A DNA stretch of 64,000 nt, from positions 62,751-126,750 of the forward strand of contig JBBDKM010000096.1 in assembly GCA_040879385.1 (NCBI GenBank), written 5' to 3'. The position numbers and the translations under genes are program-made. The notes beneath the pieces were generated by a model. It ran no database searches and was not told where the DNA came from. It saw nothing but the letters and a program-made list of their open reading frames with translations. Shown in pieces: positions 41,512 through 53,038 of this stretch. This DNA is from Thermoanaerobaculia bacterium (GTDB lineage Bacteria > Acidobacteriota > Thermoanaerobaculia > UBA5066 > Gp7-AA6). The stretch's first letter is position 1; each line of letters opens with the position of its first letter.

Positions 41512-42360
41512 TCAGGGCTCCGGCGCGTACTCCGCCGTGACGCGGGGAACCAGCCCGGCCGCGTGCGCCCGGTCGAGCAACGTCTGAACGGCCTGCCGCC
41601 CCACCTCGCCGTACTGCCGCGTCCAGGAGTTGACGTACATCGAAACGAACCGGTCCGCCTTCTCGCGCGAAAGGCCGCGGGCATACCGCATCGCGTGGTC
41701 CAGGGCGGCGCCCCGGTGCGCCAGGCCGTACTCGATGGAGCGCGAGAGGGCCCGCGAGACGCGGCCGATCCGCTCCGGTCCGAGGTCGCGCCGGACGACG
41801 TTGCCCCCGAGCGGCAGGGGAAGGCCCGTCTCCTCCTTCCACCACCGCCCGAGGTCCACGACTTCCGTCAGCCCCTCGTCGCGAAAGGTGAGCTGGCCTT
41901 CGTGGATGAGGAGGCCGGCTTCGAGCTCGCCCGACTGCACCGCCTCCTGGATCCGGTCGAACGGAAGCGGCCGCGTCTCGACACCCGGCGCCCACAGGCG
42001 CAGCGCGAGCGCGGCCGTCGTCCAGCGGCCGGGGGAGGCGACCGGGATCCGGCCCGCCGCGATCTCCTCGCGCGCGACCGGCTCCCGCGCCACGACGACC
42101 GGCCCGTAGCCGTCGCCGAAGGAGGCGCCGTGCGGGAGCAGCAGGTAGCGATCCGCCAGGTGCGCGTAAGCGTGGAAGGAGACGGCCGTCACGGCGAGCT
42201 CGCCCGCCATCGCGCGGCGGTTCAGGGACTCGATGTCGGAGAGCTCGTGGACGTAGGCGAGCCCTTCGGTGTCGACATGTCCCTCGGCGAGCGCGTAGAA
42301 CATGAACGCGTCGTCGGAGTCGGGGCTGTGCGCGACGGTGATGGTGTCGGAAGAAGTCAC
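41512..42360 (-). CDS. MqnA/MqnD-family (futalosine-pathway menaquinone biosynthesis, periplasmic-binding-protein-like fold) protein
   Basis: 282 aa with a GTG start. The N-terminus is VAHSPDSDDAFMFYAL, and IHEGQLT is present. Confidence 0.75.
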   Translation of the reverse strand: MTSSDTITVAHSPDSDDAFMFYALAEGHVDTEGLAYVHELSDIESLNRRAMAGELAVTAVSFHAYAHLADRYLLLPHGASFGDGYGPVVVAREPVAREEIAAGRIPVASPGRWTTAALALRLWAPGVETRPLPFDRIQEAVQSGELEAGLLIHEGQLTFRDEGLTEVVDLGRWWKEETGLPLPLGGNVVRRDLGPERIGRVSRALSRSIEYGLAHRGAALDHAMRYARGLSREKADRFVSMYVNSWTRQYGEVGRQAVQTLLDRAHAAGLVPRVTAEYAPEP

Positions 42361-42366
42361 GGGCGG

Positions 42367-42372
42367 ATTCTA
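42367..42372 (-). promoter_or_regulatory. -10 box TAGAAT, 6 nt before the MqnA/D-family GTG (leaderless)
   Basis: Minus strand reads TAGAAT-ccgccc-GTG(42360). It is part of a 19-nt block identical to 30791-30809. Confidence 0.5.
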
Positions 42373-42405
42373 CGACCGTCGCGCGAGCCGTGAGCCGTGT
42401 TCGAC

Positions 42406-42434
42406 TTGACTTGCACCCCGCGGATCGGGAGAAT
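42406..42434 (+). promoter_or_regulatory. candidate sigma70 promoter for the micro-ORF transcript
   Basis: TTGACT (42406-42411), a 17-nt spacer, then GAGAAT (42429-42434). Confidence 0.45.
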
Positions 42435-42489
42435 GAAGTCAAGAGAGCTTGCAAGGAAATCTTCTTGTATCCAACCGAGAGATACTTCT

Positions 42490-42597
42490 AAAATGAAATC
42501 GCCGGATGGGTTGCAGCCCACCCGGCGATTTACAGAACGTATGACCCATCAATCATTCGACAGCGACAGACTGAAGGCGATACGCCCTTTCACGGGG
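42490..42597 (-). ncRNA. predicted ~108-nt small RNA, antisense to the micro-ORF leader
   Basis: Bounded by a minus-strand promoter (TTGACA-N17-TAGTTT, 42632-42604) and a minus-strand intrinsic terminator (a hairpin of about 15 bp at 42531-42496, followed by AUUUCAUUUU). A 5' hairpin CGCCC/GGGCG is also present. Confidence 0.5.
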
Positions 42598-42603
42598 GCG
42601 GAA

Positions 42604-42632
42604 AAACTAGCATCTCGCCCGAGGGCTGTCAA
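42604..42632 (-). promoter_or_regulatory. near-consensus sigma70 promoter on the minus strand
   Basis: TTGACA (42632-42627), an exact 17-nt spacer, then TAGTTT (42609-42604). Confidence 0.55.
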
Positions 42633-42658
42633 TCGGCTGTCGGGAGGGAGGTGACGTA

Positions 42659-42718
42659 ATGGCTACGAAGAAGAAGGCCGCGAAGAAAGCGAAGAAAGCG
42701 ACCAAGAAGAAGAAGTAA
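42659..42718 (+). CDS. 19-aa lysine-rich micro-protein MATKKKAAKKAKKATKKKK
   Basis: GGGAGGGAGGTGA lies 5 nt upstream of the ATG. A TAA stop is followed about 33 nt later by a strong terminator. The ORF is too short for the ORF track. Confidence 0.5.
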   Translation: MATKKKAAKKAKKATKKKK

Positions 42719-42751
42719 GTCAAACACTTACAGCTTCGGACACGGTTTCTC

Positions 42752-42777
42752 GGGGGCCTGCGGGCCCCCTTTTTTTT
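42752..42777 (+). terminator. rho-independent terminator
   Basis: GGGGGCC-tgcg-GGCCCCC stem followed by T x8. Confidence 0.85.
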
Positions 42778-42828
42778 GCCTTGACTTTGCGGTCCGGAGG
42801 ACAGGCCGCGTCCCCGACGCGACCTCGG

Positions 42829-42848
42829 CTATATCTGCATTGATATAG
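42829..42848. promoter_or_regulatory. inverted repeat CTATATC-N6-GATATAG overlapping the padR -10 (candidate autoregulatory operator)
   Basis: Perfect 7-bp arms, ending 7 nt before the padR ATG. Confidence 0.45.
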
Positions 42849-42849
42849 T
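42844..42849 (+). promoter_or_regulatory. -10 box TATAGT, 6 nt before the padR ATG (leaderless)
   Basis: TATAGT-tgtccc-ATG(42856). Confidence 0.5.
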
Positions 42850-42855
42850 TGTCCC

Positions 42856-43395
42856 ATGTCGCTCCCGCACGTCCTCCTCGGCCTCCTCCACGAGATCCCC
42901 CGCAGCGGATACGACCTCGCGCGGGCGATGCGCGAGGAGCTCGACCCCGCCTGGAACGCCGGCTTCTCCCAGATCTACCCCGCCCTGGCGGGGCTGCGCC
43001 GCCGGGGCTGGGTCGCGCTCCGGGTCCTCGGGCCCCTGCGGGGACCCCGGCGCCACCTGTACCGGTTGACCGCCGCCGGGCGCCGGGAGCTGCGCCGCTG
43101 GCTCGGGGAAATCCCTCCGCCGCCCCGCCACAACGACGAGGGGCTCGCCCGCCTCGCCTTCCTCGACGCCCTGCCGATCCCGGAACGGCGCAAGGCCCTC
43201 CTCGCCGCCGACGCGGCGCTCTCGACCGAGATCGCGCGCCTGCGGGCGCTCTCGCCCGCCGGCGGATTCCGGAGCCTCGCCCGCCGGGCGGCGATCGAGG
43301 AGCGCGAGGCCCTGCGCCGCTTTCTCCGCGCGGGCGGCGCCGCGGCTCCACCCTCCGAAACGGGGCCTCGACGCGAGGCGAGAAAGAAGCGCTGA
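42856..43395 (+). CDS. PadR family transcriptional regulator
   Basis: The N-terminal winged helix (LLGLLHEIPRSGYDLARAM...QIYPALAGLRRRGWV...YRLTAAGRREL) is typical of PadR. Confidence 0.88.
   Translation: MSLPHVLLGLLHEIPRSGYDLARAMREELDPAWNAGFSQIYPALAGLRRRGWVALRVLGPLRGPRRHLYRLTAAGRRELRRWLGEIPPPPRHNDEGLARLAFLDALPIPERRKALLAADAALSTEIARLRALSPAGGFRSLARRAAIEEREALRRFLRAGGAAAPPSETGPRREARKKR

Positions 43396-52947: not shown

Positions 52948-53038
<91 letters not shown>

Follow-up and report, generated by a model that had tools for sequence, protein, structure and literature searches.

A predicted antisense small RNA paired with a lysine-rich micro-gene in the mqnA-padR gap of Acidobacteriota

The mqnA-padR gap and its micro-gene

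The window analysed here, to which all positions below refer, is a 64,000-nucleotide stretch of Thermoanaerobaculia DNA whose source is an uncultured soil acidobacterium; its guanine-plus-cytosine (GC) content is about 72%. Between a menaquinone-pathway gene of the MqnA/MqnD family (mqnA, PF02621, 41512-42360, minus strand) and a gene for a PadR-family regulator (padR, PF03551, 42856-43395, plus strand) it contains an intergenic gap of 495 nucleotides (nt), which houses the whole of the element that we describe. The GC fraction is 0.52-0.58 across 42300-42900 and 0.67-0.79 in the flanks, and a first-pass annotation made from the letters alone had indeed remarked that the gap is more AT-rich than its surroundings. 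On the plus strand the gap carries a very short open reading frame (the micro-ORF) behind a long leader, and on the minus strand a putative small RNA antisense to that leader. Judged from its sequence and conservation, the element joins a small RNA to a small-protein gene in a new pairing that is deeply conserved; it is found in about 90 related species and is annotated nowhere.

The micro-ORF (42659-42718, plus strand) runs for 19 codons from an ATG at 42659 to a TAA at 42716-42718. It encodes MATKKKAAKKAKKATKKKK, a peptide of 11 Lys, 5 Ala, 2 Thr and 1 Met with a grand average of hydropathy (GRAVY) of -1.76 and no hydrophobic run. Four nucleotides ahead of the ATG stands the Shine-Dalgarno (SD) region GGGAGGGAGGTGA (42642-42654), which is invariant in our alignments, and downstream the transcript would end at an intrinsic terminator called by the scan, GGGGGCC-UGCG-GGCCCCC followed by U8 (42752-42777, plus strand). 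The first-pass annotation had named the strong SD, the 19-codon ORF and the GC hairpin with its T8 correctly, and its description of the peptide as highly basic rather than hydrophobic also holds. The terminator scan found one site where 1.3 were expected, a number that does not by itself exceed chance; among the relatives, however, the stem recurs with a UGCG or UUCG loop, and terminator and micro-ORF are both nearly invariant.

The closest relatives of the window are Thermoanaerobaculia and other Acidobacteriota metagenome-assembled genomes (MAGs), with MqnA proteins 76-83% identical to that of the window and, in the seven closest genomes, a nucleotide identity of 77-84% across the gap. With a search pattern built on the ribosome-binding site and the start of the ORF, the element was detected in 75 genomes at species level, each of them from Thermoanaerobaculia or Acidobacteriota. 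A second pattern, anchored solely on the core of the putative small RNA, matched 67 acidobacterial loci, 18 of them new, for a total of about 93 species, along with five chance matches inside genes of other phyla. The micro-ORF is in frame in all of the 75 and the 18 loci. Furthermore, it lies 98 nt downstream of the small-RNA core in every locus of the second search that is not ended by a contig edge, the offset reading 95 or 90 nt where an alternative upstream start was called. The order mqnA (minus), element, padR (plus) holds in every locus with its flanks present. The distance from the micro-ORF ATG to padR is near-fixed, 195-203 nt at most loci (178-241 overall, apart from a single partial match at 293), and that to mqnA varies from 232 to 586 nt, the gap between the small-RNA terminator and mqnA being variable in sequence too. 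In two MAGs (L134/L284 and L286/L290) the element stands on two contigs each, and a contig end truncates at least one copy of each pair; these duplicates more likely reflect variation between strains or a split in the assembly than a true second copy.

Over 42484-42663 the identity of the relatives to the window has a median of 88% and a minimum of 67%, whereas in the same genomes amino-acid identity drops to 46% for PadR and 61% for MqnA, which argues that the non-coding part is under strong selection. When 188 other loci and the remainder of the window were searched with nhmmer profiles of the small RNA and of the leader, no homologues were returned, so that both appear to be specific to this clade. 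Rfam, searched on both strands at a permissive E-value, gave no family at its gathering threshold. The best sub-threshold matches were to ctRNA_pGA1 (23.9 bits, threshold 45) and PtaRNA1 (22.3 bits, threshold 47), and an identity with these plasmid antisense RNAs was rejected, as the scores are sub-threshold and the alignments reach little beyond the terminator hairpin. The first-pass annotation had allowed for a known RNA family that would explain the region on one strand only, and no such family turned up. A literature search on the peptide string and on lysine-rich small proteins with antisense RNAs found nothing describing the element.

That the micro-ORF is truly coding follows from how it varies. 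Across 32 distinct 60-nt versions the summed entropy at the three codon positions is 1.66, 1.10 and 11.05; Ala2 is written with all four GCN codons, Lys with AAG or AAA, and the stop is TAA or TAG. The first search pattern partly fixed codons 1-7, and codons 8-19 give the same entropy picture. The peptide is 19-26 amino acids (aa) long among the relatives, and its length changes by whole codons only. By these coding signatures the micro-ORF is a real gene. At one locus (L287:5100-5450) a 26-aa, Gly/Ser-richer peptide, MATKKKGGSKKSSSGGSRKGGSKKKK, stands behind the same leader and small RNA, which suggests that the middle of the peptide tolerates insertions and that its Lys-rich ends are kept. 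A small hairpin, GUAAG-N7-CUUAC (42715-42731, plus strand), encloses the stop codon. Its 5-bp stem is present in 44 of the 70 distinct relative sequences over which this and all further strand, fold and motif counts were taken, and its closing pair, 42719/42727, is G-C in 46 and A-U in 12 of them, a two-sided change. Searching NCBIfam with five peptides of this kind (two variants from the clade and three from other phyla) at E-values up to 10 matched no family. The function of the peptide is a guess; its most likely partner is a polyanion (ribosomal RNA, DNA or polyphosphate, for instance) and not a membrane.

Upstream, the promoter scan found two promoter-like sites where shuffled sequences gave 0.0. 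One of them, TTTACA-N16-AATCAT (42529-42556, plus strand), is not conserved in the relatives and was set aside. The other, TTGACT-N17-GAGAAT (P1, 42406-42434, plus strand), had already been picked out in the first-pass annotation. It would place the start near 42441 and give a leader of about 218 nt; its form, TTGAC[AT]-N17/18-nAnAAT, recurs in 67/70 relatives and is missing in the most divergent lineage (L096, L123 and L152). A possible alternative is P2, TTGTAT-N18-TAAAAT (42465-42494, plus strand), an uncertain promoter with a start near 42501, at the foot of a hairpin. The form TTGnnn-N16-18-TAnAAT is found in 61/70, the lineage without P1 included. The TAAAAT box of P2 coincides with the U tail of the small RNA and is lost in four genomes (L084, L106, L128 and L147) that keep this tail, so the box may be conserved as a tail and not as a promoter. 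Between P1 and P2 most relatives have an imperfect palindrome, CAAGGAAATCTTCTTG (42452-42467, on neither strand in particular), which becomes the perfect CAAGAAATATTTCTTG in the most divergent lineage; it could serve in the DNA as an operator that overlaps the P2 -35 box, or else form a hairpin at the 5' end of the P1 transcript. The core of P1 is flanked, in the subgroup of the window and not in all relatives, by an inverted repeat of 8 nt, CTTGACTT (42404-42411) and AAGTCAAG (42436-42443), and CTTGACTT occurs again at 42782-42789, directly past the plus-strand terminator.

The predicted minus-strand RNA

Opposite the leader we predict a cis-antisense small RNA of about 105-110 nt (42486-42597, minus strand), whose 5' end is taken from a promoter and whose 3' end is taken from a terminator. 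The promoter (42604-42632, minus strand) consists of a -35 box TTGACA (42632-42627), a 17-nt spacer that ends in TGC, and a -10 box TAGTTT (42609-42604); the TG, at 42612-42611, makes this an extended -10 element. The arrangement TTGACA-N17-TGnTAnnnT is present in 70/70 relatives, with a spacer that is always 17 nt long and a TG that is never missing. The -10 box reads TAATTT in 41 of them, TAGTTT in 21, TACTTT in 5 and TATGTT in 3, and the most divergent lineage retains both hexamers and the TG around a spacer of different sequence. The first-pass annotation had called this promoter near-consensus, which suits the -35 box and does not suit the -10 box, as the latter matches TATAAT at three of six positions.

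The terminator (42486-42531, minus strand) has a stem at 42496-42531 and a conserved U-rich tail, UUUCAUUUUA. Here too the earlier description of a hairpin with a U-rich tail stands in part: the hairpin is present and conserved, but the tail is interrupted and the strict T-run rule of the scan gave no call. On the minus strand, 69/70 sequences have at least six U in the 12 nt after the stem; on the plus strand 0/70 do, and the mean there is 2.5. Within the stem, reading the pair 42521/42506 from the minus strand gives G·U or A-U, canonical in 60/70, and reading it from the plus strand gives mostly A·C, with 29/70 canonical. The 5' part of the RNA would form a long imperfect stem-loop (42534-42588, minus strand) with pair changes of the same strand-specific kind: the pairs 42586/42536, 42585/42537, 42581/42541 and 42571/42548 alternate between G·U, G-C and A-U, and are canonical in 63-69/70 on the minus strand against 14-54/70 on the plus strand. 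Over 42486-42600 the consensus fold has an energy of -32.6 kcal/mol for the minus strand and of -17.0 for the plus strand. Of the pair cells, 96.7% are canonical in the minus-strand reading, and the share drops to 82.7% when these pairs are read from the plus strand; the minus strand has the more stable fold in 69/70 sequences, with a mean difference of 8.2 kcal/mol. Compared with shuffled controls, each strand folds better (z = -5.4 and -5.3). A frame of eight codons with an ATG inside the small RNA was considered and rejected, since no ribosome-binding site could be seen by eye and the ATG is altered in many relatives.

From the sequence of the window alone the minus-strand unit would be only suggestive, and it is conservation that lifts it above chance. 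The conserved promoter, the minus-only terminator and the minus-only helices together point to a structured RNA of about 105-110 nt, which very likely runs from about 42597 to about 42487. Two overlapping, opposed transcription units had been proposed in the first-pass annotation, all of whose motifs are present at the coordinates given there. This proposal is supported by the coding signature of the ORF, by the minus-only helices and terminator with their conserved promoter, and by a leader that has a strand-specific long-range helix and is predicted to hide its ribosome-binding site. Its suggestion to look for covariation in relatives was also fruitful, with compensatory or strand-specific pair changes on both strands. 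The two RNAs had moreover been described as fully complementary; they would indeed overlap over 96-108 nt, but the match may be less than complete, as the plus-strand start could be at P1 or at P2.

Could the plus strand be the only functional one, as a riboswitch-like or protein-binding leader, with the minus-strand signals as mere look-alikes? Covarying leader helices and two folds of equal energy, both described below, are what one usually sees in a switch; moreover, the -10 box of the minus strand is weak, and neither minus-strand signal was called by the scan. However, five pairs are canonical in 60-69/70 sequences on the minus strand and in 14-54/70 on the plus strand, and only in the minus-strand reading is the hairpin followed by a U tail. 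Both the -10 box and the TG are single-stranded in the two plus-strand folds and yet invariant, apart from a free third position of the box. Most of the conserved single-stranded bases of the leader are accounted for by the minus-strand promoter. Nor was any riboswitch or other aptamer of Rfam matched. A purely plus-strand function thus seems to us quite improbable.

The neighbouring genes appear to have promoters of their own. mqnA has a -10 box, TAGAAT, within 42361-42375 (minus strand), 6-7 nt upstream of its GTG and conserved in the clade, with no ribosome-binding site ahead of this codon. padR has an extended -10 box, TGATATAGT, within 42829-42858 (plus strand), 6 nt upstream of its ATG and likewise conserved in the clade; it sits inside a conserved palindrome, CTATATC-N5-GATATAG, which is probably an auto-operator of PadR. 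With the -10 boxes placed so close to the start codons, both mRNAs look leaderless. The sole tRNA gene of the window, for tRNA-Ser (GGA), is at 52950-53038 on the minus strand and is unrelated to the micro-ORF element.

These promoters bear on two further readings of the locus. On the minus strand, the order promoter, structured RNA, terminator, mqnA would suit a 5' leader of mqnA that acts as a riboswitch or an attenuator. The conserved TAGAAT so near to a GTG that has no ribosome-binding site implies instead a leaderless mRNA, and the stretch between the terminator and mqnA is variable and contains the plus-strand promoter. We rejected this reading on account of the -10 box at the start codon and the variable spacing, and give it almost no credence. 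The other reading would make the Lys-rich ORF a leader peptide, in which ribosome stalling at the Lys codons governs the terminator at 42752-42777 and thereby read-through into padR; a leader attenuator built on Lys codons is known in Thermus. Eleven Lys codons in 19, then a terminator and then a gene in the same direction would fit such a device, as would an ATG-to-padR distance that is near-fixed while the ATG-to-mqnA distance varies. However, the extended -10 box of padR in its palindromic operator argues against dependence on read-through, and the stop codon lies 33 nt ahead of the terminator stem. No antiterminator is evident by eye in 42659-42751, where no systematic search was made. Lys/Ala micro-ORFs in other phyla, to which we return below, also have terminators, and neither padR nor mqnA was found near any of them among the matches listed. 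Altogether, we consider attenuation of padR very improbable.

Two predicted folds of the leader and a possible switch

The leader can be folded in two ways, which treat the ribosome-binding site oppositely. In the nested fold that RNAalifold gives as consensus of the 70 sequences (42558-42642, plus strand), hereafter open, the ribosome-binding site is free and the anti-SD sequence is tied up. It consists of a long-range helix, H1 (42558-42569 with 42626-42630 and 42636-42642), a second helix, H2 (42576-42580 with 42615-42619), and a hairpin, H3 (42583-42588 with 42595-42600), all on the plus strand. Pairing holds in 99.3% of the cells of this fold, with two-sided changes at four pairs, a result that 0/500 shuffles matched. 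In the most divergent lineage CGACAGC/GCUGUCG is replaced by CGGUAGU/ACUACCG, making three compensatory pairs. The pair 42560/42640 is G·U in 59/70 sequences and is thus specific to the plus strand; furthermore, the 3' half of H1 lies upstream of the minus-strand start site, so that this helix could be formed by the plus-strand RNA only.

The second, closed fold is a local hairpin (42611-42653, plus strand) that hides the ribosome-binding site, and is the predicted minimum-energy fold of the window and of all relatives; in each of the 70 it also dominates the predicted ensemble. The anti-SD CAYCUC (42611-42616, within CAYCUCGCC) pairs in it with GAGGUG (42648-42653), and further helices join 42618-42622 to 42640-42644 and 42624-42628 to 42634-42638. 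It has 95% of its cells paired, 99% in the anti-SD helix, where U·G (38) alternates with C-G (32). In the predicted ensembles the GGAGG core is mostly paired in 70/70 sequences, with a mean unpaired probability of 0.21-0.26. When each fold was enforced on the leader of the window, the open one came to -70.5 and the closed one to -71.9 kcal/mol, a difference of 1.4. With energies this close the leader is, as modelled, bistable.

These features can be assembled into a mechanism, in which the small RNA probably controls whether the mRNA of the micro-ORF can be translated. Transcription from P1, a sigma-70-type promoter, and possibly also from P2, would yield a monocistronic mRNA of about 280-340 nt ended by the strong terminator, made of a structured leader, a very strong ribosome-binding site and the gene for the polycationic Lys/Ala peptide. 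The promoter within the leader would produce, from the minus strand, a two-hairpin small RNA of about 105-110 nt that is perfectly complementary to the leader over about 42490-42597. The open fold could form co-transcriptionally, ahead of the synthesis of the ribosome-binding site. The segment targeted by the small RNA would comprise the 5' strands of two helices of this fold and the entire third hairpin, and since these strands would be taken up, binding should release the anti-SD, lock the closed hairpin and shut off translation, a direction that we infer from the layout of the helices. RNase III would probably cleave the resulting duplex of some 100 bp, and the opposed promoters may interfere with one another.

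The small RNA might instead act mainly in trans, or have some other job, and merely be nested in the leader, antisense control of the micro-ORF being incidental or minor. With its conserved structure, its single-stranded 5' end and its two hairpins, the terminator included, it does resemble many trans-acting small RNAs, and the predicted folds hide the ribosome-binding site with no need for it. On the other hand, the offset of 98 nt between small RNA and micro-ORF is fixed in all complete loci whichever of the two served as anchor, the small-RNA region is exactly the 5' half of the covarying open fold, and with perfect complementarity over about 100 nt an interaction would be hard to avoid if both RNAs are expressed. 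We regard a mainly trans-acting role as rather unlikely.

Several observations weigh against the switch that we favor. The hiding of the ribosome-binding site at predicted equilibrium, with no small RNA present, means that the small RNA may exert its effect mainly via mRNA decay or transcriptional interference, and that this effect might even be the reverse of the one proposed. The closed hairpin shows one-sided changes only, and the two-sided changes that support the open fold come chiefly from one divergent lineage of two or three sequences. The -35 box of the minus-strand promoter reads TGTCAA on the plus strand and also lies within the structured leader, so its conservation could have two causes; the -10 box, with its three matches in six, was not called by the simple scan. 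The plus-strand transcript may start at P1 or at P2, and all of the relatives are metagenome-assembled genomes.

With these points taken into account, we lean towards a self-contained, vertically inherited two-gene module, made of an antisense small RNA, a leader switch and a Lys/Ala micro-gene; the switch mechanism itself is, on the modelled folds, plausible and testable. If true, it would be a clean natural case of indirect antisense action, in which the small RNA removes the strand that keeps the mRNA translatable. To our knowledge, almost no RNA biology is on record for the Thermoanaerobaculia. Even if the mechanism proves wrong, the locus would still contribute two new genes, one for a well-defined small RNA and one for a small protein, together with an alignment of about 90 relatives.

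The wider class and known systems

The peptide has counterparts well outside the clade. A genome search by its first ten codons (MATKKKAAKK) returned at least 120 loci in many phyla, and most of the loci among the matches listed are short Lys/Ala ORFs of 13-55 aa, such as MATKKKAAKKKKH in Terriglobales and MATKKKAAKKAAPKKKAAPKKKAAKKKK in Chitinophagaceae, with peptides of about 21 aa in Steroidobacteraceae and Bdellovibrionota. The lineages among these matches are Terriglobales, Pyrinomonadaceae, Chitinophagaceae and other Bacteroidota, Steroidobacteraceae, Bdellovibrionota, Bacillota, Patescibacteria and one Woesearchaeote. By eye, the members examined have a sigma-70-like promoter 60-110 nt upstream and a strong ribosome-binding site, except in Bacteroidota, where a conserved A-rich leader is found instead; a perfect-stem terminator follows within 150 nt in 43 of 79 loci. 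Rfam, run on 19 Lys-rich micro-ORF loci of other clades, gave nothing that overlaps them. In an exact look-up among some 15 billion predicted proteins all of the ten peptide variants queried were absent, the 19-aa peptide of the window not being among the queries. The same MATKKKAAKK start also heads long H1-like and SWIB-domain proteins. As the first ten residues were fixed by the pattern, shared ancestry cannot be claimed, and what these micro-ORFs form is a class and not a proven family.

More speculatively, stand-alone Lys/Ala micro-proteins that bind the polyanions of the ribosome, the nucleoid or polyphosphate might form a class that spans phyla, the present member being gated by a previously undescribed, antisense-flipped bistable leader. 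We put this forward as a tentative idea that may well prove wrong. The micro-gene is invisible to standard annotation, and similar genes occur in Acidobacteriota, Bacteroidota, Proteobacteria, Bdellovibrionota and other phyla. Once found, the targets of the polycationic peptide could add a small component to the biology of the ribosome, the nucleoid or polyphosphate.

Two groups of known proteins resemble the peptide. Tiny basic ribosomal proteins, namely bL37, bS22, bTHX, bL38 and the eukaryotic and archaeal eL41, occur in restricted lineages, and most were long missed by annotation. The micro-ORF peptide is, like them, very short and highly basic; unlike them, it is Lys/Ala-rich and not Arg/Lys-rich with aromatics, and it shares no sequence similarity with them. 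The gene for bL38 is located in a ribosomal-protein operon (PMC11851116), whereas the micro-ORF stands alone. The low-complexity AAKK/KKAA composition is that of AlgP, of the H1-like protein of Burkholderia and of Hc1, and the sole NCBIfam match, a very weak one, is to hist_H1_lk_Burk (E = 1.1). However, these histone H1-like proteins have 100-350 aa and often a folded domain, and the present peptide has 19 aa and what the models suggest is a dedicated post-transcriptional control.

For the locus as a whole the nearest likeness is to type I toxin-antitoxin loci. In aapA1/IsoA1 of Helicobacter, and in ldr/rdl and hok/sok of E. coli, a tiny ORF is carried on an mRNA that hides its ribosome-binding site and has alternative folds, and a cis-antisense RNA of about 100 nt, with a promoter and a terminator of its own, lies opposite the 5' part of the mRNA. 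All of these parts have predicted counterparts here: the predicted folds hide the ribosome-binding site in 70/70 relatives and, at the sequence level, the minus-strand unit has the attributes of a cis-antisense gene in general, that is, its own promoter and terminator and a strand-specific structure. In both cases an extended duplex would be expected to block translation and to attract RNase III.

This raises the question of whether the element is itself such a locus, with a toxic micro-ORF peptide and an antisense antitoxin that blocks its translation. The layout, with a small ORF, a site-hiding mRNA fold and a cis-antisense RNA of about 100 nt that overlaps the 5' untranslated region (UTR), speaks for it. 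At aapA1/IsoA1 the ribosome-binding site is concealed by the folding of the mRNA, and translation is prevented by the joint action of antisense RNA and RNase III, so that one locus joins the same parts, namely an inert fold, an antisense RNA and RNase III (PMC5416894). However, membrane-associated type I toxins are small (<60 aa) hydrophobic peptides with a transmembrane alpha-helix, and had been described only in Proteobacteria and Firmicutes (PMC8309996). The present peptide, with its 11 Lys in 19 aa and a GRAVY of -1.76, is polycationic, and its phylum is Acidobacteriota. The element also occupies a single fixed syntenic position in about 93 species, as opposed to the patchy distribution or repeated copies, often carried by mobile elements, that are typical of type I systems. 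Moreover, the Lys/Ala micro-ORFs of other phyla have strong promoters and ribosome-binding sites with no homologue of the leader or the small RNA, which is unlike a toxin. Of the type I likeness drawn in the first-pass annotation the layout remains, and the hydrophobic toxin is missing, as that annotation itself suspected; we hold a true type I function to be distinctly unlikely. The locus is best filed as an antisense-controlled small-protein gene that would work like a type I locus, rather than as a demonstrated one.

A further parallel is with tisB/istR-1 and zorO/orzO, whose antisense RNAs pair with a part of the 5' UTR that precedes the ribosome-binding site. As in those systems, the small RNA described here would spare the ribosome-binding site and target an upstream segment that is needed for translatability. 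Unlike in those systems, the upstream element would be one strand of an anti-sequestering helix and not a standby site, and the small RNA would be fully cis-antisense to its target instead of a divergently encoded partial match.

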